From IMG/VR virus record IMGVR_UViG_3300035682_000015: a stretch of DNA of 64,000 bases; one strand, written 5' to 3'. This document shows, piece by piece, positions 1-63,957 of this stretch; the stretch's first letter is position 1, and each line of letters starts with the position of its first letter. This stretch comes from a virus. Lineage: Duplodnaviria > Heunggongvirae > Uroviricota > Caudoviricetes. The translations under genes were made by a program, and so were the position numbers. Below the pieces are notes generated by a model. The model did not search any database, was not told the origin of the DNA, and saw only the letters and a program-made list of their open reading frames with translations.

Positions 1-162
1 GATAGAAGTGGGGAAAAGGGTAAGTTTCTACAATTAAGAAATGATACTCAACCACCATATATTAATAGTAGATTACAGAGAGAAATCCCGGAAGAAGAAC
101 CTATTGTTGAAAGAGATGGGGTAATAAAAAGATTATTAAAAAAATTAAAATTAAAATTATGA
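1..162 (+). CDS. 3' end of upstream gene (partial), hypothetical
   Basis: Frame 1 is open from window edge to TGA 160-162, overlapping next start (ATGA). Confidence 0.4.
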   Translation, partial: DRSGEKGKFLQLRNDTQPPYINSRLQREIPEEEPIVERDGVIKRLLKKLKLKL

Positions 163-368
163 ATATGCAATTATTAAAGTTTAATAGTACGGACAAAACA
201 GCGGTACTTAAAGATGAATTTGGTGGGGATGAAATAATATATTTCAAAAATGTTCCGACCGTAAAAGTGGAAAATGGGTATTACGAGGTAATGCAAAAAA
301 CAGAAACAGGTGTAATACCTGTGTTAAGAGTACCAATAGCGAATACAAATATGTTAATTTTGAAATAA
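159..368 (+). CDS. hypothetical small protein
   Basis: ATG ORF 69 aa, start overlaps upstream stop. Confidence 0.4.
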   Translation: MNMQLLKFNSTDKTAVLKDEFGGDEIIYFKNVPTVKVENGYYEVMQKTETGVIPVLRVPIANTNMLILK

Positions 369-370
369 TA

Positions 371-1003
371 TTAAATATTTTTCCAAGTAATTTTATTGAT
401 TATTTTCCATATACAAGGTTTTTTAACATTATATTTAATTGCCAGTTCATCATAAGTAATTTCACCCTTATTGTAATCATTTCTAATTTCTTTTACGATT
501 GATTCAGTGAGTTTGGAATTACTATTATTTTCACCAGAACTGCTCAACTGAAATTTTTTAATAGTTTCTTTAGAATGGTTAAAACCTTTGTGATTTATTG
601 ACATTTTTTCTCGACTACTTTCACTATGTTTTTTACCAAACATTGGGTTATTCTTACCGGAAACATTATGATGGTTTTGTGATATTTTTAATCTATGTTC
701 GGGTGTTAATTTTTTATTTAAGAAAAAATTATTAGTAGACCCACCATCACCACCTTCACTTATATTATAACCTATATTTTTATTGGTTGAATTATATTGT
801 TTTATCCAATATTTTTCTCGTTCAGATAATTCGGATTTGGTTTTACAATATTCTAGAATTTCTCTTGTAAAATTATATTTACCATTTTTTTTTATAGATT
901 GTTTTAATATTTTACCGGAACCTAAATATGTTTTAGATTCTCTAACTAATTTACCTATGTAAATTTTACCATTAAGATTATTTGTTGTTTTATATATGAA
1001 CAT
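371..1003 (-). CDS. GIY-YIG homing endonuclease
   Basis: Internal Met start MFIYKTTNNLNGKIYIGK...; GIY..YIG motif, R/E/N catalytic core, NUMOD-like repeats (NPMFGKKHSE). The ORF-track N-terminal extension is low-complexity and probably not translated. Confidence 0.8.
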   Translation of the reverse strand: MFIYKTTNNLNGKIYIGKLVRESKTYLGSGKILKQSIKKNGKYNFTREILEYCKTKSELSEREKYWIKQYNSTNKNIGYNISEGGDGGSTNNFFLNKKLTPEHRLKISQNHHNVSGKNNPMFGKKHSESSREKMSINHKGFNHSKETIKKFQLSSSGENNSNSKLTESIVKEIRNDYNKGEITYDELAIKYNVKKPCIWKIINKITWKNI

Positions 1004-1084
1004 AATTTTACACGACTTAATTGAAGATATATTAGATAAATATAAAAAATAGTTGAAAAGTTTTGTTTTTAATAAAAAAAAAAT

Positions 1085-1092
1085 TATCTTTG
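1085..1092 (+). promoter_or_regulatory. Bacteroidetes-type -7 promoter element TATCTTTG
   Basis: TAnnTTTG consensus 25 nt upstream of ATG 1118. Confidence 0.5.
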
Positions 1093-1117
1093 TGTTATAA
1101 TTAAAAAAATTAAAATT

Positions 1118-1687
1118 ATGAATTATGTAGATTGGTGTATAGAACAACACCGCAAAACGAATCATCAATACGACCTCTACCTTCCGTATGAATTTCACCT
1201 ACGAATGGTGAATAACGTATGTGAAGATTTCCAACATTTATTGGATGATACCAAAGATTATTTTACGGGAGAACCATATCGTGGTCCAATGCAAAACCAA
1301 GTAACTTTAAAAGATGCTTGCCGTAAAGCTAGTTTTGGTCACGACCTTATAGAGGACACAAGAGTGTCTTACAACGATGTTAAAACTGAGTTGGGTGAAG
1401 AAGCCGCAGATATTATCTACGCAGTTACCAACGACAAAGGTAAGAATCGTAAAGAGAGAGCGGGAGATAAATACTACGAAGGTATTAGGAATACTCCGGG
1501 AGCTGTGTTTGTAAAACTATGTGATAGAATTGCTAACGTTCAGTATGGTAAGATGACTAAATCCCGTATGTTTGAGCAATATAAAAATGAGAATCCTGAG
1601 TTCATCCGTCAGTTGGGTTACGATATTAATGAGTATAATGTATATGGAGATATGTTCCATTATTTGAATAATTTATTTAGAAATTAA
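1118..1687 (+). CDS. RelA/SpoT-family HD-domain hydrolase (small alarmone hydrolase-like)
   Basis: Motifs HDLIEDT, LGEEAADIIYAVTN and KLCDRIANVQY parallel SpoT hydrolase motifs HDVIEDT / FGxxVAxLVEGVTK / KLADRLHNMRT. Confidence 0.6.
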   Translation: MNYVDWCIEQHRKTNHQYDLYLPYEFHLRMVNNVCEDFQHLLDDTKDYFTGEPYRGPMQNQVTLKDACRKASFGHDLIEDTRVSYNDVKTELGEEAADIIYAVTNDKGKNRKERAGDKYYEGIRNTPGAVFVKLCDRIANVQYGKMTKSRMFEQYKNENPEFIRQLGYDINEYNVYGDMFHYLNNLFRN

Positions 1688-1691
1688 AAAT

Positions 1692-1922
1692 ATGAAAAGT
1701 TTATTAAAATTTATGGGAGTTCTAATCGGACTCTTCACTTGGGTAGAATTGATTAAGTTATCATTCTACCTTATGAAACTATCTAATACCTTTGTGTTTT
1801 ATGGTGGCGTTTTATTGTTGGCGTTGGTAACGGTTGGACCAATAGTCTATTTTGGGGATAATATTGTTATGTTTTTACGTAATATGAAAGGTGTTTTCTT
1901 TGATAAAGAAAAAAAAGATTAA
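1692..1922 (+). CDS. small membrane protein
   Basis: 76 aa, two hydrophobic helices. Confidence 0.45.
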   Translation: MKSLLKFMGVLIGLFTWVELIKLSFYLMKLSNTFVFYGGVLLLALVTVGPIVYFGDNIVMFLRNMKGVFFDKEKKD

Positions 1923-1950
1923 AAAAGTTTGTGTATTAAAAAAAATGGTA

Positions 1951-1958
1951 TATCTTTG
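1951..1958 (+). promoter_or_regulatory. -7 promoter element TATCTTTG
   Basis: upstream of 1996. Confidence 0.45.
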
Positions 1959-1995
1959 TACCCAATTAAAAAAGTAATAATTAAAATAGAAAAAA

Positions 1996-2853
1996 ATGAA
2001 AAGAATTTTAGTAGTTGTTAGTGTAGTGTTATTGTTAATTTTTGGAGTGTCTTCTTGTAAAATTGCTGATTCAGCTGAAGTTGCTTTAGTGGTAGACCAA
2101 ATTGGAACCAACAAGGGTGTTCCCAATATAGAGATGGCCTCGGGATTTATCTTTTATTTCCCCCCAACACAGGATGTGTTTATGTATCCAACATCAGTTC
2201 AACACAAAGTATGGTCGGCAGAATCAAACGAGGATTCCCCAACGGATGAACATATTGATGTAACATCTGCGGATGGTGCGACATTCGGATTAGATGTATC
2301 GATTAACTTACAATTACAGAGAGCGAGAGCGTCCGAGTTATTTATTAAGTATAGAGTTGATATGGAGGACTTAATTAATACAAGAGTAAGAACTATTGTT
2401 AGAAAAGAATTATTAGACAACGCTGTTAATTTTGCGTCAGATAGTTTATTACAACATAGAAATGTATATGAGGCGAATGTGACTAAAACATTAACCGTGT
2501 CGTTAGAGAAAGAAGGGTTCACATTAAATAACATCGCAATCCTTAAAATGGCGTTACCGGCTTCGTATAAGGCAGCTATTGAGAGAAAGATTGCTGTTCT
2601 TCAGGAGACAGCAACCATTATATCTCAAACAAAACAAGCGGAACAAACGGCACTTAAGAAAGTGGCTTTGGCTAAGGGTAACTTTGAAGCGGCACAATAC
2701 GACGCTAAGACAAAGGAAATTTTATCTCAACCTAAATTGTTAGAATTGTATAGAGCGGAGACCGAAAGAATAAGAGCGACAAATGGTACATCAGAATACG
2801 GACAGAATAATGTCTTTGGTTCGGCTCAGGGAATATTGTTAAATAGAAAATAA
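1996..2853 (+). CDS. SPFH/band-7 (prohibitin/stomatin-like) membrane protein
   Basis: N-terminal TM/signal; C-terminal coiled region typical of band-7/HflK family (ALPASYKAAIERKIAVLQE...). Confidence 0.65.
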   Translation: MKRILVVVSVVLLLIFGVSSCKIADSAEVALVVDQIGTNKGVPNIEMASGFIFYFPPTQDVFMYPTSVQHKVWSAESNEDSPTDEHIDVTSADGATFGLDVSINLQLQRARASELFIKYRVDMEDLINTRVRTIVRKELLDNAVNFASDSLLQHRNVYEANVTKTLTVSLEKEGFTLNNIAILKMALPASYKAAIERKIAVLQETATIISQTKQAEQTALKKVALAKGNFEAAQYDAKTKEILSQPKLLELYRAETERIRATNGTSEYGQNNVFGSAQGILLNRK

Positions 2854-2862
2854 TATAAAATT

Positions 2863-3228
2863 ATGACAGTATTATTAGTGGTTTTAGGTTTTGTATTATT
2901 CGTAGGAATTTTATGGGACATAGTTGGTATGTGTATTGTTGGGTTTCCAACATCAGATGAAAAAATCTTAAACTTCCTTGAGGAAATTAAGAATAATAAT
3001 CCACAAGATGAGGGTTATGATAGTGAATTTAGTAAATCTATTTCACATATGTATAAAACAAAGATTCTTGATGAGACAATGATTTATACTTTTGGTAAAA
3101 GTTATATATCAAAGTCACCCCAAGGTGTTAGTTATAAATGGTATGTTGATGGTTTAGGTGTGGTGCCAAGATGGTACAAATCACATTCGGAGATTGAGAA
3201 ATTATATAATGAATTAAAAAATAACTAA
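2863..3228 (+). CDS. membrane protein, paralog pair member
   Basis: N-terminal TM; paralogous to 3231-3584 (FLEEIKNNNP / VPRWYKSHSEIEKLY). Confidence 0.55.
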   Translation: MTVLLVVLGFVLFVGILWDIVGMCIVGFPTSDEKILNFLEEIKNNNPQDEGYDSEFSKSISHMYKTKILDETMIYTFGKSYISKSPQGVSYKWYVDGLGVVPRWYKSHSEIEKLYNELKNN

Positions 3229-3230
3229 TT

Positions 3231-3584
3231 ATGGTAGGATTAATAGTATTTTTGGTTTTAGGTTTTGTGTTTTTTTTAGGTACTGAAATTGCCTTGATAA
3301 GTACAACAGGTTTACCCCCAAAAGACAAGGATGTTTTGGAATTCCTTGAGAAAGTTAGAAAGAGTAATCCGGAACTTACAGATGGGGCAAAACCAGAATC
3401 TATGATTTGGTCAAGTGGTAATCCATATATTTCAACATCTTTAAAGAGTTGTTTAATTGGGTGTTACATTAGTGATGTTGGTGGAATACCGAGATGGTAT
3501 AAATCGTATGGTGAGATTCAAAAACTATATATTGAGTTGGGTGCAAAAGGTGGTAAAACAAAAAGAGAAATGTTAGGGTTATGA
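3231..3584 (+). CDS. membrane protein, paralog pair member
   Basis: Tandem paralog of 2863-3228. Confidence 0.55.
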   Translation: MVGLIVFLVLGFVFFLGTEIALISTTGLPPKDKDVLEFLEKVRKSNPELTDGAKPESMIWSSGNPYISTSLKSCLIGCYISDVGGIPRWYKSYGEIQKLYIELGAKGGKTKREMLGL

Positions 3585-4126
3585 GATTAAATAAAAATTC
3601 AGTTAGTTCAAGATTATATAAATGGTTTTATGGTGTTAGTGAGTGGAAAGGGTTACCAAACAACCTTTGTCCTTACTTTTGGCGAGTAGTTCTAATGTAC
3701 GTTACAATCATTCCTTACACGTTATTCTCAATCCCGGTGGTTGTTTATGATATGTTTGATAAAGGATATGATAATGGGGATAGAAAGACCGGTGAGAGAT
3801 TAGGTATTAGTTTTGGGGTTTATTTTGCCTTATGGTTATTGGTTGCGGTTATAACAACAATTGTTGGACTATTCGTAAAAATTGAACCAAAAAGTTTTTG
3901 GGAATTCACTCAACTTTTAGGTTATTTGATTTGGTTTATAGCAATTATTGTTGGTGCGGTTGAAGGGTTTAAATATTTGAGAGAATATTCAACAACAGAT
4001 AAAGGTTATTGGGACTATACCCAAGACAAATGGGTTGTTAAGAAAGCTAAGGTTAATCTAACCACAGAGTTTATCAAAGCTAAGTATAATAAGTATTGTC
4101 CTAAAATTGATTGGTATAAGGAGTAA
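3581..4126 (+). CDS. multi-pass membrane protein
   Basis: ATGA overlap with upstream; several hydrophobic helices. Confidence 0.55.
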   Translation: MRLNKNSVSSRLYKWFYGVSEWKGLPNNLCPYFWRVVLMYVTIIPYTLFSIPVVVYDMFDKGYDNGDRKTGERLGISFGVYFALWLLVAVITTIVGLFVKIEPKSFWEFTQLLGYLIWFIAIIVGAVEGFKYLREYSTTDKGYWDYTQDKWVVKKAKVNLTTEFIKAKYNKYCPKIDWYKE

Positions 4127-4428
4127 TGGTTGGTGTTAAATCTTTTAGAAAAATATTGAAACGTCAATATCCTGAATATTATGATAGAATAAGTGTTAGT
4201 ATTAATCAGTATTCAAATTACTCACAATTTCTTGGTGTGGATGGTAGAATGAGAGAGGAACTTAATTATAATTTAAAAGTTACTGAAGTTAGGATTTCAT
4301 TTCCCGGAAATTCAGGTAATCTTTATCCCGACATTAGTTCTTTTATAAGGATTATTTGGGGTGGAAAAGTCGATGTGATGGCAACATTTGATTCTTGTGG
4401 AACTAATCATTTCGAATTTAAAATATAA
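4126..4428 (+). CDS. hypothetical protein
   Basis: TAATG coupling; followed by terminator. Confidence 0.5.
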   Translation: MVGVKSFRKILKRQYPEYYDRISVSINQYSNYSQFLGVDGRMREELNYNLKVTEVRISFPGNSGNLYPDISSFIRIIWGGKVDVMATFDSCGTNHFEFKI

Positions 4429-4460
4429 AAAAAACCCCCATTAAGTTGGGGGTTTTTTAT
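4428..4460 (+). terminator. intrinsic terminator
   Basis: CCCCCA-ttaagt-TGGGGG hairpin + T-run. Confidence 0.7.
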
Positions 4461-4481
4461 TTGTAAGATATTTATATAGGT

Positions 4482-6086
4482 ATGAAATTAATTGAAAGTA
4501 TAAAACAAATCATTTCGGAGGCATCCAAGAAACAAATCTTAATGGATAAGATTAGGTTTAACGAGGAGAATGCTGACTTATTGGATACAATTTGTGGTCC
4601 ATTATCTGTTTGGATGGGAAATAAGTTTATTGATTTTTATTCAAAACGTTTAGAATCAGTACTCCCAGAATATGAAAACGAAAAAGATTATAGAAAGGCT
4701 GTGATTAGAAACCTTAATAACAATTTTGCGATTAATTCACATAGACAAGATATTGTATCAATAATGGATTGGATTAGAGTTGGTTTGAATGGTAATTTAG
4801 GTGAAAATAAAGAATTAAATTTAAATGAATTACATCATAAATCAAAAGAATGGCGCGATAGTTTAGAGATTGGTCAAGGTACTATTAACTATAAAGAAGA
4901 AAATCCAACTATATTAGATTTTACTGATGAGGACGGGAATGGATTCTATTGGGCGGATTTGAATACAAAGAACTCATCAGAGGAATGTGATAGGATGGGG
5001 CATTGTGGAAGAAGTTCTTATGGATATCTTTATTCATTAAGACAAAATATCCCTATTAATAACAAATATAAATTAAACAAATCGGTTCTAACTGCGGCAA
5101 TCGGTGAGGATGGTATTTTGTATCAATTAAAGGGTGTTAAAAACTCTAAACCAAAAGATGAATATCATCAATATATTCTTCCATTATTTTATGTGTTAGG
5201 TGGAGATGGTGAACAGGATGATTACTTGATTCAAGGATTTGGTAGTGAATACGCGTCAGACCAAGATTTTAAACTATCTGACCTACCGGAAGAAACAATC
5301 AAAGATTTATATCAAAACAGACCGGAGTTATTCTCATCAAGAACTATGCAGAGATTGTTAGGTAAGATGGGAATTGTGGATGTTCAACCACTCCCAACAA
5401 CATTTGTGTTAGAGGTTAGTCCGGATGATTTTAGTGATTATATTGATGGTGGAACTTACAGAACATATACCAATAGAACTACAGGGGTTAAAACAACAGT
5501 GAGTCTCTTTGTTGAGATAATGTCGGGTGATGCTTGGGACTTATGGAGTCAAGATAATTACGAAGATTTTGGGGGTTATTTCCAATATACAATAGACAAC
5601 CCAACAGAAGAAAAATTATGGTCAATTGTTAGAGGTTTTGCTCAGAGAGATGGTATTGAATTAGATGAGAATTTAGGTTTGGAAGATGCTATTGATGAAG
5701 TAGATAGTAATGGTGAAATTAAACTAGCGATTGGTAGTGCTATAAGTGATGCTGATGCTAACGATTATGTTGACCACTTACAAGATGAAATAAAATCGGC
5801 TTTAGAGTTTTACGGTAATGTTTATGAATTTAATGATACCGGAGCCAAAATACAAGTTGATTTAAGTAATTTTGTTAATATTGATGACGAAGAAATTGAT
5901 GAGATGTTTGAAAACAATATGAATAGAGATGGTAGTTATAATTTAGAGGGTGTTTTAAATGAATTATTATCTGAAGATATGGTTGAAAAACCTGATTTTG
6001 ACCCCGATGACCGCTGGTACCCTTCACCTGATTCTAGTGTTGTAAATGAAAATGTGAGATACAGATTAGATGATATTAGTATATGA
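4482..6086 (+). CDS. large acidic hypothetical protein
   Basis: 534 aa; preceded by terminator + GATATTTATA motif. Confidence 0.6.
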   Translation: MKLIESIKQIISEASKKQILMDKIRFNEENADLLDTICGPLSVWMGNKFIDFYSKRLESVLPEYENEKDYRKAVIRNLNNNFAINSHRQDIVSIMDWIRVGLNGNLGENKELNLNELHHKSKEWRDSLEIGQGTINYKEENPTILDFTDEDGNGFYWADLNTKNSSEECDRMGHCGRSSYGYLYSLRQNIPINNKYKLNKSVLTAAIGEDGILYQLKGVKNSKPKDEYHQYILPLFYVLGGDGEQDDYLIQGFGSEYASDQDFKLSDLPEETIKDLYQNRPELFSSRTMQRLLGKMGIVDVQPLPTTFVLEVSPDDFSDYIDGGTYRTYTNRTTGVKTTVSLFVEIMSGDAWDLWSQDNYEDFGGYFQYTIDNPTEEKLWSIVRGFAQRDGIELDENLGLEDAIDEVDSNGEIKLAIGSAISDADANDYVDHLQDEIKSALEFYGNVYEFNDTGAKIQVDLSNFVNIDDEEIDEMFENNMNRDGSYNLEGVLNELLSEDMVEKPDFDPDDRWYPSPDSSVVNENVRYRLDDISI

Positions 6087-6793
6087 ATTTAAGTAAAGAT
6101 TTAACGATAGTAATACCCTGCAAAAACGAGGGGTTAATCATAAAGAAAACTTTGGGGTTAATAAACCTGCAAAACAATATCAAAGGTGTAAATATTATTG
6201 TTGCCGATTCTTCTAATGACGATGGTTTTACACAAAAATGTATATTAAACTCGTCCAATACTAATATCAATGTAAAGATTGTTAAAGGTGGGTTCCCTGC
6301 TGAGGCCAGAAACAACGGAACCAAAAAGATAAAAACACCTTATGTTTTATTTTTGGATGCTGACATATACCTTAATGATTATGATTTGTTAAAAGATATG
6401 GTTGAGGTTATGAAAGAAAATGATTATCATTTATCGACAACTAAAATGAGAACTGACGATGGTGATTACAATTATGTATATAAATCATTTGATGTTATCC
6501 AATACTTAACCAAATTCTCCACACCATTTGCGGTCGGTGGATTTATGTTATTTAATTTAGAAATATTCAATTCATTGGGTGGGTTTAATCCGGATGACAA
6601 GTTCGCTGAGGATTATCATTTAAGTTCAAAAATAAAACCAAATAAATTTTATGTGTCAGACAAAATTGTTTATACCACATCAAGACGATTTAAGAACAAA
6701 GGTTTATTCTATATGGTTAAGATGATGATTAAATCTTGGTTTAATAGAAATAACGATGAGTTCTTTACAAAGGAACATAATTACTGGACATAA
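6083..6793 (+). CDS. family-2 glycosyltransferase
   Basis: IVIPCKNEG ... DADIYL (DxD) GT-A signature. Confidence 0.7.
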   Translation: MNLSKDLTIVIPCKNEGLIIKKTLGLINLQNNIKGVNIIVADSSNDDGFTQKCILNSSNTNINVKIVKGGFPAEARNNGTKKIKTPYVLFLDADIYLNDYDLLKDMVEVMKENDYHLSTTKMRTDDGDYNYVYKSFDVIQYLTKFSTPFAVGGFMLFNLEIFNSLGGFNPDDKFAEDYHLSSKIKPNKFYVSDKIVYTTSRRFKNKGLFYMVKMMIKSWFNRNNDEFFTKEHNYWT

Positions 6794-7512
6794 TGAAATA
6801 CAAAACAATAATTCTATCAGACATTCACTTGGGTTCCAAATCAAGTAGAGCCAACGATGTTATAGAATTTCTTGAAAACAACACCACAGAGACCTTAATT
6901 TTGAATGGGGATATCGTTGATGGTTGGGCTCTTAAAAGAGGTGGTAAATGGACTGAAAGTCACACCAAAGTATTAAGGAAGATAATGAAGATGAGTGAGA
7001 AGGGAGTGAATGTTATTTGGATTAGAGGAAATCACGATGAGTTCCTAAAAGATTTCATCCCATTCCAATTATCCAATCTAACAATCACGGAGGATTATAC
7101 CTTTACATCACTTGATGGTCGTAAGATGTATGTGTTTCACGGAGATGTGTTAGATGTGTTTATTACCAAAGCAAAATGGTTGGCTCACATCGGTTCGATA
7201 GGTTATGATATAGCGTTATGGATGAATAGAGTGTACAACAAATATCGTGAGACGAGAGGGTTACCTTATTATTCCATCTCTAAAGATATAAAGAATGGTG
7301 TTAAGAAAGCGGTTAACTTTATTAATGATTTTGAAGAGAATGCTGTGTTATTGAGTAAGAAAAAAGGATGTGATGTTGCTGTATGTGGCCACATTCATCA
7401 ACCGGAACTTAAAGAGAATTATATGAATAGTGGTGATTGGTGTGAGAATTGTACAGCTCTTGTTGAGACAAAAAAAGGTGTGTGGGAAGTTATTGAGTTT
7501 CACAAAAAATAA
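6793..7512 (+). CDS. calcineurin-like metallophosphoesterase, LpxH-like topology
   Basis: DIHLG, GDIVDGW, GNHDE, HGD, GHIH, NSGDW motifs in the order seen in UDP-2,3-diacylglucosamine hydrolase. Confidence 0.6.
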   Translation: MKYKTIILSDIHLGSKSSRANDVIEFLENNTTETLILNGDIVDGWALKRGGKWTESHTKVLRKIMKMSEKGVNVIWIRGNHDEFLKDFIPFQLSNLTITEDYTFTSLDGRKMYVFHGDVLDVFITKAKWLAHIGSIGYDIALWMNRVYNKYRETRGLPYYSISKDIKNGVKKAVNFINDFEENAVLLSKKKGCDVAVCGHIHQPELKENYMNSGDWCENCTALVETKKGVWEVIEFHKK

Positions 7513-7513
7513 A

Positions 7514-7636
7514 ATGAAAAAGAAAGATTATATGGAGATGGAAAAAGAATATAAAAAAGGAACAAAAATGTTAATAATTATGTTTATAATGATTGTTATT
7601 GGAGCATTAGTAATAAATTATTGTAATGGAATATAA
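7514..7636 (+). CDS. small membrane peptide
   Basis: 40 aa hydrophobic ORF after stop of 6793-7512. Confidence 0.3.
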   Translation: MKKKDYMEMEKEYKKGTKMLIIMFIMIVIGALVINYCNGI

Positions 7637-7814
7637 AATTAATTCGGAAGAGAAAACTATCACAATATTTAATAGTGAGGGAAAGGTTGATGAGATTAAA
7701 TCATTGATGAAACTATTCCCCAATTATACACTAATCACGGGACAACCAAAGAAAGAATGTGTTTGTAACCCATCTAAAGGTGGTGATGGGATTTGTAAAT
7801 GTGAAAAAAAATGA
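7626..7814 (+). CDS. small Cys-rich protein
   Basis: 62 aa; CVCNPSKGGDGICKCEKK C-terminus. Confidence 0.4.
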   Translation: MEYKINSEEKTITIFNSEGKVDEIKSLMKLFPNYTLITGQPKKECVCNPSKGGDGICKCEKK

Positions 7815-7845
7815 CCCTAAGAGTTGAATTCTTAGGGTTTTTTAT
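7813..7845 (+). terminator. intrinsic terminator
   Basis: CCCTAAG-loop-CTTAGGG + T-run, followed by TATATTTG-N4-ATG. Confidence 0.6.
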
Positions 7846-7858
7846 TTATATTTGTGCT

Positions 7859-8005
7859 ATGGATAATTTAAAAAAGTTTATAATAAAAAGAAAGTATGAC
7901 CTTTTGGCTGTGGTTAGTATTATTTTAATGATTTCAATTAATGTTATATTTGCAGTCCCGGCAATTATTTTTCTTATAATCGGAGAAAGTAAAACAAAAC
8001 ATTAA
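7859..8005 (+). CDS. small membrane peptide
   Basis: ATG 4 nt after TATATTTG (7847-7854). Confidence 0.4.
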   Translation: MDNLKKFIIKRKYDLLAVVSIILMISINVIFAVPAIIFLIIGESKTKH

Positions 8006-14899: not shown

Positions 14900-14997
14900 A
14901 ACGGTTTATTTTAATTAGAGTACAAAGATACACTAATATTTTAACTTACCAAATTATTTGACAAAATAATTCATTATGTCTATTATTGTGAGGTAAA

Positions 14998-15573
14998 ATG
15001 ATTGATATGAAATTAAACGAACAATTAACAAAAATTAAATCAATGATGGGAATCAATGAAAACAAACAATCTTATCCATACTCTTGTGCTATGTTATACT
15101 TTAACCCGGATTCGGTTACAGAACTACATAGTAAAATAAACCCGGAGGACCTATACACAGAAGAAGATGGGTTTGGTTTAGAACCGGAATCACACTGTAC
15201 GTTACTATACGGATTACACGATAATGAGGTTGATATTGAAGATATTATTAACGTAATAAACAAATACTCTTACACAAATTGTAAGGCACATAACCTATCT
15301 TGTTTTAACAATCCAAAGTATGATGTGTTAAAATATGATATAATGGGGGATAATCTAAGTGAAACTAATGAGGAGTTAAAACAATTCCCATTCACAAGTG
15401 ATTACCCGGACTATCACGCCCATATGACCGTGGCATATCTTAAACCGGGTAAAGGTAATCATTATATTAATATGTTGGGTGATGAATACAAAGAAATGGT
15501 AATGACACCTCAACACGCTGTGTATTCAAGAACTGATGGTACCAAACACAAAATACCGGTTAGGTTTACATAA
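14998..15573 (+). CDS. 2H phosphoesterase superfamily protein (LigT/Acb1-like)
   Basis: Two H-x-T-x motifs 76 aa apart: HCTLLYGL (aa 66) and HMTVAYL (aa 142), matching HxTLxFxG / HxT[LV]A of LigT-type 2H enzymes. Confidence 0.55.
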   Translation: MIDMKLNEQLTKIKSMMGINENKQSYPYSCAMLYFNPDSVTELHSKINPEDLYTEEDGFGLEPESHCTLLYGLHDNEVDIEDIINVINKYSYTNCKAHNLSCFNNPKYDVLKYDIMGDNLSETNEELKQFPFTSDYPDYHAHMTVAYLKPGKGNHYINMLGDEYKEMVMTPQHAVYSRTDGTKHKIPVRFT

Positions 15574-20877: not shown

Positions 20878-20960
20878 ATCAAATAAATATCTAACAAAGA
20901 TAAAACATTTTATTGATTATATGGGGGAAATTATATATTATTATAATAAAATTAAATACT

Positions 20961-21590
20961 ATGGAATTAATAGAATCGTTACAGTGGAGATATGCCACCA
21001 AGAAAATGAATGGGGATAAAATCCCACAAGATAAATTAGATAGAATCTTAGAGGCAACAAGATTGGCTCCGAGTTCATATGGGCTAACACCTTATCAGGT
21101 AATCGTGGTAGAGGACCAAGACTTAAAGGAACAATTGGTGGGAGCGTGTTATAACCAAACACAACTAAAAGATTCATCGGCTGTATTGGTATTCGCGGTG
21201 TGGGATACAATAGATGAAAATGAGGTGGAGTATTACATTAAGACTATGGCATTAGAAAGAAATATCCCGGTAGAAGTATTAAATGATTTCAAAGGAATGA
21301 TGTTAGGGACATTATCTAATATGACAGAGGAACAAAAAACTATATGGGCACAGAAACAAACGTATATAGGATTAGGATTCTCATTAGTGGCATCAGCAGT
21401 AGAAGGAATAGACTCTACTCCAATGGAGGGATTTGTACCATCACAGGTGGATGAGATATTAGGACTAAAAGAATTAGGGTTAAAGTCCACATTAGTTCTT
21501 ACGTTAGGATATAGAGATACAGAAGGAGATTCACTATCTACTATGAAGAAAATAAGAAGAGATGGTGAGAATTTCTTTATAAGAAAATAA
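20961..21590 (+). CDS. NAD(P)H nitroreductase family protein
   Basis: RYATKKM..DKIP..LDRILEATRLAPSS.GLTPYQVIVV nitroreductase N-terminal signature. Confidence 0.75.
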   Translation: MELIESLQWRYATKKMNGDKIPQDKLDRILEATRLAPSSYGLTPYQVIVVEDQDLKEQLVGACYNQTQLKDSSAVLVFAVWDTIDENEVEYYIKTMALERNIPVEVLNDFKGMMLGTLSNMTEEQKTIWAQKQTYIGLGFSLVASAVEGIDSTPMEGFVPSQVDEILGLKELGLKSTLVLTLGYRDTEGDSLSTMKKIRRDGENFFIRK

Positions 21591-26105: not shown

Positions 26106-26876
26106 ATGAACGTATTAACAAACACTTTATTGGGGAACGATGTAATCATTGACATAATTGAAGGTCAAATGATTCTACATATTCCACATTCAAAAACAGA
26201 AATACCATTTTATGATGGATTTAATATGAATTATATTGAAAATGAGACCAAATTATTGGTTGATTTTGCTACTGATAAAATTTTTGACATCCCTAATGTC
26301 GAATCTCTAACTTTTGAGTATAATAGAATATTTTGTGACGTTGAAAGATTGGACGATAATGATGAACCATTATTTAATCTTGGTAGAGGTTTTTTTTATA
26401 CCAAAACTGATGACGGAAAAGACCTTAGAGTGTTAGATGATATGGTGAAAAAAAAGATTAAAGAAGAATTTTATGATATTCACCATAATAAATTGAATCA
26501 AATGGTTGAATATAGGTTGAATGAGTATGGTTGTGCAGTAATTATTGATTGTCATTCGTTTAGTGATATCCCATTTATAACTGATTTAGATAAAAGTGAG
26601 GTTAGACCGGACATTTGTTTAGGTGTTGATGATTTTCACACACCAAAATGGTTAATTAATCAAATTAAATCATATTTTGAATATCATAATTTATCTGTTA
26701 AAATAAATTCCCCGTACTCAGGGACAATAATTCCATTAAAATATTATAATAAAAACAAAAATGTTATTGGAATTATGATTGAGGTGAATCGAAAACTTTA
26801 TATGGATGAATTTATTGTTGATGATAATAAGGTTGATGAATTAAATTCTATTATTAAAAAATCTTTATTCATATAA
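26106..26876 (+). CDS. N-formylglutamate amidohydrolase-like zinc amidohydrolase
   Basis: HIPHS...IP and IIDCHS motifs reminiscent of FGase family; weak. Confidence 0.35.
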   Translation: MNVLTNTLLGNDVIIDIIEGQMILHIPHSKTEIPFYDGFNMNYIENETKLLVDFATDKIFDIPNVESLTFEYNRIFCDVERLDDNDEPLFNLGRGFFYTKTDDGKDLRVLDDMVKKKIKEEFYDIHHNKLNQMVEYRLNEYGCAVIIDCHSFSDIPFITDLDKSEVRPDICLGVDDFHTPKWLINQIKSYFEYHNLSVKINSPYSGTIIPLKYYNKNKNVIGIMIEVNRKLYMDEFIVDDNKVDELNSIIKKSLFI

Positions 26877-31279: not shown

Positions 31280-31753
31280 ATGAGTAAATGTTATGACAAC
31301 CCCGAGTTTGACGACCAAGAACCTGAAACACAAAATACATGGAAACAATCTATACCAAAAGACAATTTTGACAATGCTTTGGAAAGTTTCAAGGAATCGT
31401 TAATTAAGAAGTGTGACCCCACCCTTAGTGAGAAGTTGGAAAAGGTTGTCTCTAAGGAACCAAGTAAGTTTTGGTCCGAGAGTGATGAGAGGGTTAGAAT
31501 TAAAGAAGAGAAAAAACTTAGAGAGGCGTTTGATGAAATATACGACTCAATTGATTTTAGAGAATTTGACTTTGCGTCGTTTAAGTTGGGAGTTAAATGG
31601 GGACAACAACAAGACGAGAATAAGTATAGTGAGGAAGATATGAGAGATGCTCATCAAATGGGTGCTATTTTTGCTTATGGAAAAAAGGAAGTAACAAGAG
31701 AGGATAGAGTAAAACATTTTGAGGGATGGTTTAATCAAATTAAAAATAAATAA
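31280..31753 (+). CDS. protein with C-module
   Basis: KWGQQQDENKYSEEDM...WFNQIKNK. Confidence 0.5.
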   Translation: MSKCYDNPEFDDQEPETQNTWKQSIPKDNFDNALESFKESLIKKCDPTLSEKLEKVVSKEPSKFWSESDERVRIKEEKKLREAFDEIYDSIDFREFDFASFKLGVKWGQQQDENKYSEEDMRDAHQMGAIFAYGKKEVTREDRVKHFEGWFNQIKNK

Positions 31754-32367
31754 TGGAGTATTGTGAATTACCTAAGGATTCGTTATTAACGAAACTACCC
31801 AATTTTAATTATGTTGGTGAGGATAAGAAGAGATTGAATGTTGTAATTGCCGGTGGTGCTGTCCGGGATAGTTTATTTGGTGACGATTATAGTGATATCG
31901 ACATATTTGGTCTTACCAAAGGTGAATTAGATTCATTTGTGGAGATAAATCTGTCAAAATCACAAGGATATAAGATGGTTTATTTCAACGAGAACCTAAG
32001 AACTTACAGAAAAGGGAAGATTAAGGTTCAAATTATCTACCGAGAGTACGAAAAACTAACAGATATTATTGATTTGTTTGATTTTACCGTATGTCAGTTT
32101 ATGTATGACGGTGAAAAGGTCATTTGTAACCCCTCCGGAATACTAGATGTTCATCATAAGAGGATTATTATCAACCATTTGGAACCTTTATTTGTTTTTG
32201 ATTCGTTAAGACGGGTTCAAAAGTACGTTCAGAAGGGATATACTATCTGTAATGGGGGAATTAAGGACATTTTGGACAAATGTCGGGAATTAACACAGGA
32301 ACAATACGACGAAAACGTAGAATTTTACCCAAATACTGAGGAATATAGGATAATTAGGTTCGATTAA
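31753..32367 (+). CDS. polymerase-beta-type nucleotidyltransferase, CCA/poly(A)-polymerase head-domain-like
   Basis: VVIAGGAVRDSLFGDDYSDIDIF matches the hGGxVRD...DhDh signature of tRNA nucleotidyltransferase/PcnB head domain. Confidence 0.55.
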   Translation: MEYCELPKDSLLTKLPNFNYVGEDKKRLNVVIAGGAVRDSLFGDDYSDIDIFGLTKGELDSFVEINLSKSQGYKMVYFNENLRTYRKGKIKVQIIYREYEKLTDIIDLFDFTVCQFMYDGEKVICNPSGILDVHHKRIIINHLEPLFVFDSLRRVQKYVQKGYTICNGGIKDILDKCRELTQEQYDENVEFYPNTEEYRIIRFD

Positions 32368-51951: not shown

Positions 51952-52125
51952 ATGGGACTTATAAATAATCTTTATGCTGTGTATGAAAAATCACCGGCAC
52001 ACGGGAGCAAAGAACATAATGTAATTTTGGCTCCTTTCAAAACTAAAGAAGAGGCAGAACAAAACAGAATTAAATACGGTTATAACACCGATAATTATTA
52101 CGTAGATATTTTGAAATATGAATAA
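51952..52125 (+). CDS. hypothetical small protein
   Basis: 57 aa, stop overlaps thyA start. Confidence 0.3.
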   Translation: MGLINNLYAVYEKSPAHGSKEHNVILAPFKTKEEAEQNRIKYGYNTDNYYVDILKYE

Positions 52126-53266
52126 ACTAGATAAACAATACACAGACCTTCTCCAAGACATTCTTGACAACGGAGTAACAAAACAAGACAGAACAGGTAC
52201 AGGGACAATCTCAGTATTCGGAAGACAAATACGTCACGATATGAAAGATGGTTTTCCTCTTTTGACTACAAAGAAAATGCCATTCAAAACAATCGTAACA
52301 GAACTTCTTTGGTTCTTACGAGGAGATACCAACATTAAGTTTTTGGTTGATAATAATTGTCATATTTGGGATGGTGATTGCTACAAATCTTATAAACAAA
52401 GTATTTTAGAATCCTTTGATAGATTATCAAATGACCCCGTAATAGATGCGATGCCACCTAGAATATTAACACAAGAAGAATTCACCAACAAAATCAAAAC
52501 AGATGATGAGTTTGCTAAGAAGTGGGGTGAGTTAGGTCCTGTGTACGGTAAGCAATGGAGAAAGTGGGGTTATGATAGTGATAAATGGAGAGAAGACTAT
52601 AACAAATTACAATTTGGTTCTAAAGAAGAAATTGAACACCTTAGTAAAAAAGGTATAGACCAAATCACAAACCTAATCAACGACCTTAAAACAAATCCAG
52701 ACTCAAGACGATTGATGGTTAATGCTTGGAATGTTGGAGAATTAGACCAAATGGTTCTTCCACCTTGTCATTATGGATTTCAAGTTTATACAAGAGAGTT
52801 GAGTTTAGATGATAGAAAAGATATTTGGAATAAAAACAATTTCAGTCAAGATATGTCGTGGCATAATATGGAAGAACACGATATTATGGATTTACTAAAC
52901 GATAATGACATCCCAAAACGAGCAATCTCTTTAATGTTTAATATGAGGTCAAATGATGTTCCATTAGGGCTTCCATTTAATATATCATCTTATGGTTTAT
53001 TATTAGAAATTATTGGGAAAATGGTTAATATGATACCTGACGAATTAATTACTAATTTAGGTGATGCTCATATCTATAAAAACCAAGTAGATGGTGTTAA
53101 AGAACAATTAACAAGGAAACCATTTGAATTACCTAAATTAGTTATGTCTAACCAAATTAATTTTAATGAAAGTGTTGCTGAATTTTTGAATAGTTGTCTA
53201 ATAACTGATTTTATTGTTGAAAATTATCAATCACATCCAACCATAAAAATGCCATTATCTAACTAG
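52118..53266 (+). CDS. thyA: thymidylate synthase family (ThyA, long-insert type); possibly pyrimidine hydroxymethylase
   Basis: DRTGTGT, ELLWFLRGDTN, LGPVYGKQWR, LPPCHYGFQ (catalytic Cys), DVPLGLPFNISSYG; L. casei-like small-domain insert plus extra ~35-aa insert. Confidence 0.8.
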   Translation: MNKLDKQYTDLLQDILDNGVTKQDRTGTGTISVFGRQIRHDMKDGFPLLTTKKMPFKTIVTELLWFLRGDTNIKFLVDNNCHIWDGDCYKSYKQSILESFDRLSNDPVIDAMPPRILTQEEFTNKIKTDDEFAKKWGELGPVYGKQWRKWGYDSDKWREDYNKLQFGSKEEIEHLSKKGIDQITNLINDLKTNPDSRRLMVNAWNVGELDQMVLPPCHYGFQVYTRELSLDDRKDIWNKNNFSQDMSWHNMEEHDIMDLLNDNDIPKRAISLMFNMRSNDVPLGLPFNISSYGLLLEIIGKMVNMIPDELITNLGDAHIYKNQVDGVKEQLTRKPFELPKLVMSNQINFNESVAEFLNSCLITDFIVENYQSHPTIKMPLSN

Positions 53267-53322: not shown

Positions 53323-54153
53323 ATGAAAAAGTTTTTAATCTATGAAATAAAAAACAATATAAATGGTAAATCTTATATTGGACAATATAGTGGTGAGTCA
53401 TTTGAAAAGTATTTTGGAAGTGGAAAATTAATTAAGTTATCAATAAAAAAATATGGGTTAGAAAATTTTTCTAAAACAATTTTAGAAGAGTGCTTTAATA
53501 AAAATGAATTGAATGAAAAAGAAATTTTTTGGATAGATAAATTAAAAACTATTGAAAATGGTTATAATTTGACTGAAGGTGGAACAGGGGGTGATTTGTC
53601 TGAATTTATAAAGTATGGTGAGAATTGGGTTGAAAAACAAAGAATCTCCACAAAAAAATATTGGGACAATCTAACTGAAGATGAAAGAAAAAAAAGAAGT
53701 GAAATTGTTTCAGGTGAAAAAAATGGGATGTATGGTAAAGATGGATTTTGGAAGGGTAAAAAAATACCAATAGATATTATTAAAAAGTCATTGGAGAATA
53801 GAAGAAGTTACGATAAAGAACAAAACCCAAATTGGAAAGGTGGTGTTACATATGTTTATTGTGAATGTGGTAAAAGAATAGGTTATGGTCACATTCATTG
53901 TAACAAATGTAGACCTAGAACTAAAAACAATAATCCATTTTATGGGAAACAACATTCCGAAGAGACTAAAAAAAAATTAAGTGAAAAAAGGAAAGGGGTA
54001 AAACCAACAAATATGAAACCGGTAATGATTGATAATATTATTTATGAAAGTTTGGCGGAAGCGTCAAATATACTTAAAATTCCAATGGTTACAATTCGTT
54101 GGAGAGTGAAAAGTAATAATGAAAAATTTAATAATTACCAATATAAAGAATAA
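53323..54153 (+). CDS. GIY-YIG homing endonuclease
   Basis: IYEIKNNINGKSYIGQ ... NGYNLTEGGTGG; NUMOD-like repeats; Cys4 zinc finger CECGKRIGYGHIHCNKCR. Confidence 0.75.
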   Translation: MKKFLIYEIKNNINGKSYIGQYSGESFEKYFGSGKLIKLSIKKYGLENFSKTILEECFNKNELNEKEIFWIDKLKTIENGYNLTEGGTGGDLSEFIKYGENWVEKQRISTKKYWDNLTEDERKKRSEIVSGEKNGMYGKDGFWKGKKIPIDIIKKSLENRRSYDKEQNPNWKGGVTYVYCECGKRIGYGHIHCNKCRPRTKNNNPFYGKQHSEETKKKLSEKRKGVKPTNMKPVMIDNIIYESLAEASNILKIPMVTIRWRVKSNNEKFNNYQYKE

Positions 54154-58960: not shown

Positions 58961-59653
58961 ATGAAAGTGACTTTTTTATCTGATACGCACAATAAACACA
59001 AACAAGTGACGGCCGATTTACCGGGAGGTGATTTGTTAGTTCATAGTGGAGACATTTCTTCTATGGGTTACGAACACGAAATCAGAGAGTTCTGTAAGTG
59101 GTTTAACAACATAGAAGGTTACACTCACAAGGTATTTATTGCTGGAAATCACGATTGGGGTTTTCAAGACAACGTTGATAAGGTAAAAGAAATATTAGAT
59201 TTCTACTCCGGAATCACATATCTTCAGGATAGTGAATTGGTAATCAAAGTTGGTGATGAGAGAGAAGTAAAAATCTATGGTAGCCCTTGGCAACCTTGGT
59301 TTTACGATTGGGCATTTAATTTACCTAAAAATGGTTTTGGGTTAGCTAGTAAATGGGAAGGAATCCCTGATGATACCGACATCTTACTTACCCACGGACC
59401 AGCATTTGGAATATTAGATACTGTTGATGGTAGAAGACACGACAACTTAGGTTGTGAGTTATTAGTTGAAAGATTAGAGAGATTGAATGTTAAACTTCAT
59501 AATGTTGGTCACATCCATACCGGATATGGTTACGTTAGAAAAGGAGATACCCACCACTTTAATTCTGCGGTGTTAGATGAGAGATACATCTACACTCAAA
59601 AACCAATGACTATTGATTGGAATCCGGAAACAAACGAAGTTGAGTTTGTGTAA
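58961..59653 (+). CDS. calcineurin-like metallophosphoesterase
   Basis: LSDTH, GDLLVHSGDI, GNHDWG, THGP, GHIHTGYG motifs. Confidence 0.65.
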   Translation: MKVTFLSDTHNKHKQVTADLPGGDLLVHSGDISSMGYEHEIREFCKWFNNIEGYTHKVFIAGNHDWGFQDNVDKVKEILDFYSGITYLQDSELVIKVGDEREVKIYGSPWQPWFYDWAFNLPKNGFGLASKWEGIPDDTDILLTHGPAFGILDTVDGRRHDNLGCELLVERLERLNVKLHNVGHIHTGYGYVRKGDTHHFNSAVLDERYIYTQKPMTIDWNPETNEVEFV

Positions 59654-60666: not shown

Positions 60667-61497
60667 ATGAAAAACACAAAAACTTACCACGAGTTGGTAC
60701 AAAAATTAAGAACGTTCTTCGTAAATAAGAACTTTATTGAGGTTCCGACCCAATCAAGATTATCTATTTTAGCTGCTTGTGAAAACCCACACTCAGTAAA
60801 AACCTTTGAATATGGGGGTGAAATTTGGCCATTACCACAAACCGGGCAAATGTGGTTAGAATTGGAATTATTGAAGAATCCTGAATGGGATGGAGTGTTC
60901 TGTATTTCAACATCATATAGAGAAGAGAAAAATCCAATCCCGGGTCGTCACGAATTAATCTTTCCCATGTTTGAATTTGAATCAAAGGGCGGTATGCTTC
61001 ATTTACTCGTATTAGAACGTGAATTATTACAATATTTAGGTTTCTCAGAACCAGTTCCCGTAGATTACGAACAAGTTTGTAAAGAATATGGAGATGTTTC
61101 TATTTTAGAAGATGAACACGAATCGAGAATGTGGAAAGAAAAAAGTGAGGTTATATCATTACAAAACTTTCCAATTAGAACAAACCCATTTTGGAATATG
61201 AAACACGATTCAGATAACATCTTCAATAAGGTTGACGTAATCCTTTTTGGTCAAGAAACTATTGGTTCTGCTGAAAGAAGTTGTGATGTTGAAAAGATGC
61301 GAGAGATGTTCTATACAATTGAAGGTGGTGGTTACTCTCAGAAATTATTTGAATTATTTGGAAAAGATAGAGTTGAGAAAGAATTAAAAGAATTCTTATC
61401 TTTGGACTTTTTCCCAAGATTCGGAGCCGGAATTGGTTTAACAAGATTGGCAAGAGCTTATGAATTAAATCAAAAAGTTTTGGAAGTTATAGAATAA
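60667..61497 (+). CDS. class-II aminoacyl-tRNA synthetase catalytic-core paralog (EpmA/GenX- or AsnA-like), no anticodon-binding domain
   Basis: Motif 1 FFVNKNFIEVPTQ; motif 2 YREEKNPIPGRHELIFPMFEFE; motif 3 RFGAGIGLTRLARAY. Confidence 0.6.
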   Translation: MKNTKTYHELVQKLRTFFVNKNFIEVPTQSRLSILAACENPHSVKTFEYGGEIWPLPQTGQMWLELELLKNPEWDGVFCISTSYREEKNPIPGRHELIFPMFEFESKGGMLHLLVLERELLQYLGFSEPVPVDYEQVCKEYGDVSILEDEHESRMWKEKSEVISLQNFPIRTNPFWNMKHDSDNIFNKVDVILFGQETIGSAERSCDVEKMREMFYTIEGGGYSQKLFELFGKDRVEKELKEFLSLDFFPRFGAGIGLTRLARAYELNQKVLEVIE

Positions 61498-63360: not shown

Positions 63361-63957
63361 TTAAGATAAGTCCTTCGACATATTGATTGCTGCTTGTAAA
63401 GCTTCAGGATTATTCTCAATTACTTTATGACCTCGTTTAGTATAAGGCATTACATAAGATATTCCGGATTTTACCATCCATTTTTTATCTAAGTCATCAC
63501 TTTCATCAAATAATTTGTCGTATTTTTGTTTCCAGCCAACCCATTCCCACTCTTCGTAGTCCTCTTCTTTTGGTTTATAAGATGGGTCAAATAATCTATC
63601 ACCAATTTTAAATGTTTGTCCCCCTCTGTGGGTGTATCCGTGATATCCGGCAATAAATTGTTGGTCGGGATACATATCATTGTATTCAATAATTGTTGCA
63701 ACTCCGTGGGGGTATTCATCATTCACCACCATATTGTTTTGATAATACCACCAACCTATCTCAATATCTCCAATATATTCACCCGTCTTTGATAAAAATG
63801 AATTAGGTAATTCATGTTCATTTTCATCCCCAAATGTATGATTTTTAATGATTCCACCAGTATATTTTTGAATTTTATAAACGCATTCGGGATTAACAAC
63901 CCATCCGGCAGATGTTCTAACTGGTGTAATTCTTGAAACAAGTTTTGTAAAACCCAA
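63361..63957 (-). CDS. hypothetical protein (probable TTG start)
   Basis: 198 aa; no in-frame ATG near 5' end. Confidence 0.4.
   Translation of the reverse strand: MGFTKLVSRITPVRTSAGWVVNPECVYKIQKYTGGIIKNHTFGDENEHELPNSFLSKTGEYIGDIEIGWWYYQNNMVVNDEYPHGVATIIEYNDMYPDQQFIAGYHGYTHRGGQTFKIGDRLFDPSYKPKEEDYEEWEWVGWKQKYDKLFDESDDLDKKWMVKSGISYVMPYTKRGHKVIENNPEALQAAINMSKDLS

Follow-up and report, generated by a model that had tools for sequence, protein, structure and literature searches.

A probable small alarmone hydrolase with a clade-specific loop insertion encoded by a putative huge phage of Bacteroidota

A 64,000-nt stretch of viral DNA (IMG/VR record IMGVR_UViG_3300035682_000015, Caudoviricetes), referred to at its full length as the window, carries an ATG-started open reading frame (ORF) of 189 aa at 1118..1687 on the plus strand, per the ORF listing of the window and its translation. 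In our judgment this gene most likely encodes a Mn2+-dependent small alarmone hydrolase (SAH), that is, a 3'-pyrophosphohydrolase from the superfamily of RelA/SpoT homologs (RSH). This reading is based on homology, predicted fold, catalytic residues that are both intact and conserved, a stand-alone architecture, and the combined phage and Bacteroidota context; from these we infer the dependence on metal, the substrates, the timing, and the advantage for the phage.

Results

The start codon of the SAH gene is backed by homologs with an identical start position. A first-pass annotation had called the product a SpoT/Mesh1-type alarmone hydrolase on the basis of three motifs, HDLIEDT (aa 75-81, nt 1340-1360), GEEAADIIYAVTN (aa 93-105), and KLCDRIANVQY (aa 133-143, nt 1514-1546), all of which are present in the translation as described and aligned to PDB proteins, with a resemblance to SpoT/Mesh1 hydrolases that is well beyond chance per phmmer, PHROG, and NCBIfam matches. 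The phmmer search against PDB retrieved RSH hydrolases only (Mesh1, PaSAH, and the N-terminal domains of Rel and SpoT), including human Mesh1 (3nr1, E=2.5e-6), Drosophila Mesh1 (3nqw, 3.3e-6), and the Pseudomonas aeruginosa SAH, PaSAH (6yvc, 5.2e-6), and its alignments paired HDLIEDT with HDTVEDT, AVTNDK with EVTDDK, and KLCDRIANV with KLADKLYNL. With a profile of 18 close homologs (70-92% identity) the PaSAH match improved to 7.7e-8, and the matches to Mesh1, PaSAH, and Rel span E values of 1e-5 to 1e-8 over the single-sequence and profile searches. The protein also matched PHROG 990, 'metal-dependent phosphohydrolase' (E=8e-21), and locally TIGR00691, spoT_relA (E=1.8e-6). No other Pfam domain was found above threshold in the 189-aa protein, the whole length of which lies within the HD fold. 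The family comprises 2,988 clusters at 50% identity, and many close homologs are named '(p)ppGpp synthase/HD superfamily hydrolase' by the Joint Genome Institute pipeline.

The AlphaFold2 model generated from an alignment of 64 sequences is all-helical and was predicted with high confidence (predicted local distance difference test (pLDDT) of 96.7, predicted template modeling (TM) score of 0.92). The top Foldseek matches in PDB were PaSAH (TM 0.70/0.74), Mesh1, RelH, and other SAHs, whereas generic HD hydrolases (YpgQ, DatZ, HD-GYP, OxsA, and YfbR) scored at most 10.1 in the fold comparison, which argues that the predicted fold is specifically that of an RSH hydrolase domain. The superposition of the all-alpha HD fold is likewise better with the hydrolase domains of Mesh1, SAHs, and Rel than with other families of HD proteins.

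The predicted metal-binding tetrad of H27, H75, D76, and D136 aligns with the residues of PaSAH and Mesh1, and the HDxxED (E79, D80) and DxxxN (N140) motifs are both intact. In RelSeq the metal-binding tetrad is formed by H53, H77, D78, and D144, and we take H27 to correspond to RelSeq His53 and Mesh1 His35. The first-pass annotation had named loss of the Mn-binding His and Asp residues as the observation that would speak against its call; these residues are present and conserved, including a fourth ligand that it had not listed, H27 within LPYEFH (codon at 1196..1198), which is near-invariant in the family (63 of 64 diverse homologs) and is the predicted first metal-binding His because the profile pairs lpyefHl with LPYLVHL of PaSAH. 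The codons for the H75-D76 metal dyad and the E79-D80 catalytic dyad lie at 1340..1357, within a motif (HDLIED) that aligns with HDTVED of Mesh1 and HDTLED of PaSAH, and KLCDRIAN at 1514..1537 (K133, the predicted metal ligand D136, R137, A139 at the D+3 position, and N140) aligns with KLADKLYN and KLCDRITN, respectively. H27, H75, D76, E79, D80, D136, R137, and N140 are invariant in the 18 close homologs. Among 64 diverse homologs (37-65% identity), D136 is kept in all, H75, D76, E79, and N140 in 63 each, A139 in 61, and D80 in 60, and further residues kept in 60-64 of the 64 are R137, H11, N15, Y18, Y24, G108, R111, R114, Y120, K133, Y155, E158, and F162.

Several observations nevertheless weigh against this reading. 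The first-pass annotation had proposed a search with the PF13328/HD_4 profile; the query alone scored 14.6 bits (E=0.028) and did not reach the gathering cutoff of 27.2, while 23 of the 64 diverse family members matched HD_4 at E<=0.01 (best E=7e-9). The SAH family appears to sit at the edge of the curated HD_4 model, with its class assigned by fold and catalytic motifs, and the evidence for an RSH-type enzyme from the single sequence is consistent, if short of overwhelming. SAHs are also promiscuous, acting on NADPH (PMC9765508) and on pyrophosphorylated tRNA (bioRxiv 10.1101/2021.04.30.441581). The physiological substrate could be (p)ppGpp, (p)ppApp, or pyrophosphorylated tRNA. Furthermore, the protein has an 18-aa clade-specific insertion between helix 2 and the HD helix (DTKDYFTGEPYRGPMQNQ, aa 44-61, nt 1247..1300). 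The insertion is largely invariant within the close clade and is modeled confidently (block pLDDT 91-97). Of the 64 diverse homologs, 16-19 have gaps at aa 44-45 and 40-54 have gaps at aa 46-61; the spacing from H27 to H75 is 47 aa here versus a mode of 29 in the diverse homologs. Lastly, the Arg of the HD1 motif (R44 in RelSeq and, as we take it, R24 in Mesh1) has no match in the alignments, its place being taken by H16 or Y18 in a shortened loop where the N-terminal alignment scores low; in the hhalign comparison, the 'KR' of the phage SSU5 SAH falls in a two-residue gap of the query family.

In RelSeq and Mesh1 this HD1 Arg makes contact with the guanine base, and it is typical of (p)ppGpp hydrolases, although not all active SAHs have it. 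With this residue unmatched, a preference for guanine is uncertain. PaSAH, which hydrolyzes both ppGpp and ppApp (PMC10083569), also has no HD1 Arg in the alignment, so its absence is no argument against activity and leaves the base preference open. In the (p)ppApp hydrolase Aph1, the counterpart of the HD1 Arg is D24, a determinant of (p)ppApp specificity, and the combined R119A and D24R changes opened the pocket to guanine (PMC10083569). The site of Aph1 R119, three residues after the metal-binding Asp, is Ala139 in the window protein, and KLCDRIAN is near-identical to KLCDRITN of PaSAH; because of these two features we predict a dual (p)ppGpp/(p)ppApp hydrolase. The features that define the Aph family (D24, R96, D116, R119, K133, and Y134, in a compact eight-helix tetramer; PMC10083569) are not those of the SAH protein.

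As the first-pass annotation had stated, the protein is a stand-alone, single-domain enzyme. Precomputed Pfam matches showed no RelA_SpoT synthetase in the flanks read on either side of the SAH gene, up to 6-10 kb each, in the window and in four relatives, and none was found in any window ORF of at least 190 aa, and an adjacent co-oriented toxic RSH synthetase, as in type IV antitoxin or Aph1-like immunity arrangements, was not seen. When the flanking ORFs of 80 IMG/VR viral loci were clustered, no neighbor occurred in more than 26 loci; the most common were an SPFH lipoprotein (26), a 69-aa protein (24), a CCA-adding-type nucleotidyltransferase (21), and a phosphoribosyl pyrophosphate (PRPP)-synthetase-like protein (10). 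With no conserved neighbor and no synthetase, the SAH gene appears to be an independent accessory gene whose product is neither an antitoxin nor an immunity protein. In the window and in relatives L012 and L014, a small gene begins 4-5 nt past the stop codon of the SAH gene, but a conserved downstream partner was ruled out, since the products show no relationship to one another or to those of the overlapping 155- and 173-aa genes of L005 and L007.

The window has a GC content of 30% and is densely packed with small, mostly plus-strand genes that are otherwise mostly ORFans, and a tRNA scan of it found none. Megablast of window positions 1-8000 against 50,697 phage records (INPHARED) returned no DNA match, so the lineage was derived from protein matches. 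A head-maturation-protease-like protein shares 59.8% identity with its counterpart in a 634-kb uncultured 'huge phage' and 44.6% with those of Prevotella Lak phages, and the SAH (at 33.9% identity) and the aminoacyl-tRNA-synthetase-like protein described below both have homologs in the 735-kb records LR756501/3. The window would accordingly be a fragment of a huge (jumbo) phage, with 480-735 kb 'huge phages' and Lak phages as its relatives and a genome that likely exceeds 200 kb. SAH homologs at 58-86% identity are found on 124 IMG/VR viral contigs, many of them 200-434 kb long, and close homologs also occur on metagenomic contigs of up to 323 kb; together with the phage genes in the window, these relatives bear out the earlier description of the gene as phage-encoded.

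Among the best 80 of 254 relatives in a GTDB genome scan, cellular homologs were overwhelmingly from Bacteroidota at 36-50% identity (Kordia, Chitinophagaceae, Salinivirgaceae, Prevotella, and Flavobacteriaceae), plus Nannocystis. In the five Bacteroidota loci scanned, the SAH copies lie among housekeeping genes (rRNA methyltransferase, EngB-like GTPase, SIS, prephenate dehydrogenase) with no adjoining synthetase, as would be expected for housekeeping hydrolases of alarmones, and a toxin-antitoxin-like arrangement in the cellular homologs was ruled out by these neighbors. SAH homologs at 40-76% identity were also present on contigs of metagenome-assembled genomes labeled Saccharibacteria, Methanobacterium, or Bifidobacterium (L018, L021, L038, and L040); these are probably mis-binned phage contigs and not indicative of true hosts.

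A putative Bacteroidota-type sigma-A promoter precedes the SAH gene at 1062..1092 on the plus strand, consisting of a -33 TTTG (1062-1065), a 19-nt spacer, and a -7 TATCTTTG (1085-1092) that ends 25 nt upstream of the ATG. TAnnTTTG occurs 133 times in the window versus 105 +/- 9 in shuffles, and TATCTTTG occurs 26 times versus about 5 expected, with 13 copies intergenic and the contexts having the common pattern AAAAGTTTG-N19-21-TATATCTTTGT. In an automated count, 11 copies lay within 60 nt upstream of a start on the same strand; the copy of the SAH gene is not among them, because an overlapping longer ORF had displaced the SAH gene in the crude gene set. Other examples are at 1951, 15840, 16263, 46540, and 58936 on the plus strand and at 14923, 20895, 39949, and 46213 on the minus strand. 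The pattern looks like a -33/-7 sigma-A promoter serving many genes of the phage, and the -33 TTTG/-7 TAnnTTTG consensus is, as we understand it, of the Bacteroidota type, so its spread across the window points to a Bacteroidota host. A scan for sigma-70 promoters and terminators around the SAH gene yielded nothing above shuffles. We conclude from these sequence comparisons that the host is in all likelihood a Bacteroidota bacterium and that the phage gene would belong to the lineage of the orphan housekeeping SAHs of Bacteroidota. A promoter of host type also suggests that the SAH gene is probably transcribed by the host RNA polymerase, early in infection.

Directly upstream of the SAH gene and divergent from it, at 371-1003 on the minus strand, lies a GIY-YIG/NUMOD3 homing endonuclease gene. 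A 275-aa GTG-started ORF at 371..1198 on the minus strand, which overlaps the SAH start, was rejected as an artifact of the mechanical ORF listing; gene calls on contigs encoding the identical SAH protein give 371..1003, and Pfam and PHROG alignments start at residue 55-66. With this boundary there is no overlap with the SAH gene, and a 114-nt intergenic region remains. The endonuclease is present on the contigs with the identical SAH (L001-L004) and absent from the same place in relatives at 70-77% identity (L005, L007, L012, and L014), which makes it a probable recent arrival by mobile insertion. Another clear GIY-YIG homing endonuclease (53323-54153, plus strand) lies immediately downstream of the 382-aa thymidylate synthase ThyA (52118-53266, plus strand), and a third GIY-YIG match in the window is weak. 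The Pfam model of ThyA, of 266 positions, spans residues 6-381, implying an insertion of about 110 aa; the pairing of ThyA with an adjoining GIY-YIG endonuclease recalls the associations of homing endonucleases with td/thyA genes.

Two other genes of the window have putative counter-defense functions. An Acb1-like 2H phosphoesterase (14998-15573, plus strand; PHROG 755; Pfam Acb1 at 27.2 bits, just at the cutoff) has two H-x-T motifs, SHCTLLYG (HCT) and HAHMTVAY (HMT), making it a candidate anti-CBASS or cyclic-nucleotide-degrading enzyme, and a protein similar to the type I Thoeris inhibitor Tad6 is encoded at 63361-63957 on the minus strand (PF25188, 49.5 bits, cutoff 27). An SPFH/Band_7 lipoprotein (1996-2853, plus strand; PHROG 200) has its own putative TATCTTTG promoter. 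The aminoacyl-tRNA-synthetase-like protein (60667-61497, plus strand; 276 aa; tRNA-synt_2, 6e-14) consists of a class II catalytic core only. It shares 53% identity with the 'tRNA ligase' of Prochlorococcus phages P-SSM2, P-SSM5, and P-SSM7 and about 50% with gene products of 484-735 kb huge phages, and it may have an AsnA- or EpmA-like role. The window further encodes an N-formylglutamate amidohydrolase (FGase) family protein (26106-26876, plus strand; 1.6e-33), a nitroreductase (20913-21590, plus strand; 3.6e-19), and two calcineurin-like metallophosphoesterases (6793-7512 and 58961-59653, plus strand), all auxiliary enzymes uncommon in phages, as well as an endolysin and a family 2 glycosyltransferase.

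The CCA-adding-type nucleotidyltransferase found near the SAH gene in relatives is a protein of about 240 aa with a CCA-adding/poly(A)-polymerase head, lies within 3 kb in the 21 of 80 viral loci, and is often accompanied by a cREC_REC protein (examples at L005 8055-8774, L007 7086-7805, and L114 752-1480). A blastp comparison at E<=1e-3 found no homolog of it in the window; a weakly related nucleotidyltransferase is encoded at 31753-32367, 30 kb from the SAH gene.

Discussion

By analogy with RelSeq, Mesh1, and PaSAH, H27, H75, D76, and D136 of the SAH protein would hold the metal ion, E79-D80 would activate the attacking water, and N140, R137, and K133 would position the phosphates. The enzyme would then remove the 3'-pyrophosphate from (p)ppGpp, and probably from (p)ppApp too, to yield GDP/GTP or ADP/ATP. 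Alarmone levels could in this way be kept low during infection, blocking the stringent response or an alarmone-based growth arrest and sparing from shutdown the rRNA and tRNA synthesis, translation, and nucleotide supply that a large phage needs.

The main alternative, which overlaps with this chemistry and does not exclude it but differs in physiological substrate and selective pressure, is that the SAH acts chiefly in counter-defense, neutralizing toxic RSH synthetases (toxSAS such as CapRel, FaRel, or PhRel, or (p)ppApp synthetases delivered by phages or type VI secretion systems) through degradation of (pp)pApp and/or removal of the 3'-pyrophosphate from tRNA CCA ends; we regard this as possible, if on balance doubtful. 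Phage SAHs are capable of such an effect, as those of PVP-SE1 (PbcSpo) and SSU5 (PaSpo) neutralized all five tested toxSAS (Jimmy et al. 2020, PMC7229694), and MESH1 and ATfaRel restored aminoacylation of tRNA modified by FaRel2 (bioRxiv 10.1101/2021.04.30.441581). The (p)ppApp synthetase toxin Apk2 is encoded in Bacteroides prophages, so toxins of this kind can occur in Bacteroidota cells, and the missing HD1 Arg would suit a non-guanine substrate (PMC10083569). The Tad6-like and Acb1-like genes, putatively directed against nucleotide-signal defenses, and the CCA-enzyme neighbor of relatives fit a counter-defense theme circumstantially. However, no toxSAS or defense gene is linked to the SAH gene, the anti-defense genes are separated from it by 13 and 62 kb in a genome that likely exceeds 200 kb, and the CCA enzyme has no homolog in the window (blastp, E<=1e-3) and occurs in only about a quarter of the relatives. 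The toxSAS subfamilies named in PMC7229694 are, moreover, reported chiefly from Actinobacteria, Firmicutes, Proteobacteria, and Cyanobacteria and not from Bacteroidota. In Bacteroidota the cellular SAH homologs are orphans among housekeeping genes, a context suggesting that the ancestral role was ordinary turnover of alarmones. Going further, the largely invariant 18-residue insertion and the shortened HD1 loop without its guanine-contacting Arg could be read as marks of a dedicated anti-defense or RNA-repair enzyme with a macromolecular or non-canonical 3'-(pyro)phosphate substrate, in place of an alarmone scavenger. Candidate substrates would be the tRNA CCA end pyrophosphorylated by toxSAS-type toxins, where the SAH would act together with the CCA-adding-type nucleotidyltransferase found near it in about a quarter of related phages, or a 3'-phosphorylated immune signaling nucleotide; we consider this proposal improbable.

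We find it very unlikely that the enzyme is, in the manner of metazoan Mesh1 and XccSAH, mainly a metabolic 2'/3'-phosphatase that reshapes host cofactor pools by converting NADPH to NADH or by acting on another 2'/3'-phosphorylated nucleotide such as pAp or 3'-phosphoadenosine 5'-phosphosulfate. XccSAH, a bacterial SAH, does hydrolyze NADPH besides alarmones, yet its activity on NADPH is about 1,000-fold less efficient (kcat/Km of 3.6e2 versus roughly 5e5 to 1e6 for alarmones; PMC9765508). ThyA and the nitroreductase in the window, and the PRPP-synthetase-like and NMNAT-like CTP_transf_like genes in relatives, would be in keeping with a metabolic role, but no feature of the context is specific to NADP(H), and sequence identity to Mesh1 is only about 18-21%. 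The HD_4 score below threshold and the database annotation of relatives only as 'metal-dependent phosphohydrolase' might instead suggest a generic HD phosphohydrolase (for instance a dNTP triphosphohydrolase or nucleotidase, DatZ- or YfbR-like) or a catalytically dead remnant, and in the homolog from Tenacibaculum phage PTm1 the E of the ED dyad is replaced (HDAVSD), so some family members may have drifted. Against this stand the RSH-specific ED dyad and D..N motif, both intact and conserved, and the strong purifying conservation over thousands of homologs, and we judge the idea highly improbable.

If active, a small alarmone hydrolase of this kind would let huge phages of Bacteroidota act directly on the alarmone signaling of the host, and a divergent, insertion-bearing subfamily would join the small set of SAHs that can be compared for specificity toward ppGpp, ppApp, and pyrophosphorylated tRNA. 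Because the HD1 Arg is missing and the insertion is conserved, substrate specificity is the point of interest. The practical value is modest: the gene joins the other putative counter-nucleotide-signal genes of the window (Acb1-like and Tad6-like), its product is a compact candidate for toxSAS-neutralization assays, and it supports the assignment of the phage lineage to Bacteroidota hosts.

Like the window protein, the SAHs of the Salmonella phages SSU5 and PVP-SE1, which are lytic or plasmid-like, come from stand-alone genes that have no toxin gene beside them, and for them too a use by the phage against alarmone-based growth arrest has been proposed. SSU5_099, which we take to be the tested SSU5 SAH based on its annotation as the metal-dependent phosphohydrolase of that record, is homologous to the window family (hhalign 97% against the family profile, 139 aligned columns, with HD..ED and D..N aligned). 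It is, however, only about 22% identical to the window protein and keeps the H..GQ.R HD1 motif that is shortened in the latter. A tblastn search of the query against the 50,697 phage records retrieved neither SSU5 nor PVP-SE1 at E<=1e-3, and with the low identity this suggests that the window SAH is of a different subfamily. The hosts also differ, Enterobacteria in the one case and, as predicted, Bacteroidota in the other, and toxSAS neutralization is demonstrated for the SSU5 and PVP-SE1 enzymes. In routine practice, the SSU5 SAH serves to suppress the toxicity of toxSAS while these are being expressed (PMC9712102).

PaSAH (6yvc, 6z3n, 6z3o) shares with the window protein a single HD domain of about 180 aa, the LPY..HL, HD..ED, and KLCDRI(A/T)N motifs, the lack of an Arg at the HD1 position in the alignment, and the status of an orphan unlinked to a toxin (PMC10083569). 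The two are about 21-25% identical, and the window protein is longer by some 18 residues in the stretch from helix 2 to the HD helix; PaSAH is chromosomal with experimentally supported activity on (p)ppGpp and (p)ppApp, whereas the phage-encoded protein is assigned by prediction. Metazoan Mesh1 (HDDC3; 3nr1, 3nqw, 5vxa) is likewise a single-domain SAH of similar size, but it is eukaryotic, lacks the loop insertion, is 17-21% identical, and has a nicotinamide-riboside motif that supports its NADPH phosphatase activity (PMC9765508). Aph1 from a Bacteroides caccae prophage (7smg) also has no Arg at the base-contact position, but it is a tetrameric immunity protein of 141 aa and eight helices that is paired with the Apk2 toxin, and its specificity residue R119 is Ala139 in the window protein (PMC10083569); its structural match is weaker than those of the SAHs.

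Among cultured phages, the 'phosphohydrolase' of Tenacibaculum phages PTm1, PTm5, and pT24 (BBI90623.1) is the closest homolog (tblastn 28-36% identity, hhalign 99.9%) and shares the jumbo-phage context and a Bacteroidota host. The PTm1 protein (L016 3950-4471) differs in having no 18-aa insertion and in replacing HDLIED with HDAVSD, so that the catalytic Glu becomes Ser and BBI90623.1 may be inactive or use altered chemistry. Homologs of the same group, which include the top BFVD fold matches, are found in Nodularia, PAK_P1-like Pseudomonas, and Caulobacter phages; the homolog of Pakpunavirus phage Adele has been annotated as a 'small alarmone hydrolase' (PMC12846349). In their list of counter-nucleotide genes from jumbo phages, Iyer et al. 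2021 included an 'HD-alarmone PDEase' (PMC7824862). The example given there, BBI90576.1, was considered as a prior description of this family and rejected, being a different PTm1 protein (hhalign probability 0.3%) from the true PTm1 homolog, BBI90623.1. The pbcSpo2 and paSpo groups described as SAHs of Flavobacteria and Cytophagia (Atkinson 2011, PMC3153485) are candidates only for the window protein. The gene introduces no new concept, as phage SAHs that counteract toxSAS were shown in 2020-2021 and 'HD-alarmone PDEases' of jumbo phages were noted in 2021; to judge from the comparisons above, it would take its place as a distant and previously uncharacterized SAH among phage SAHs that are already known and experimentally tested.

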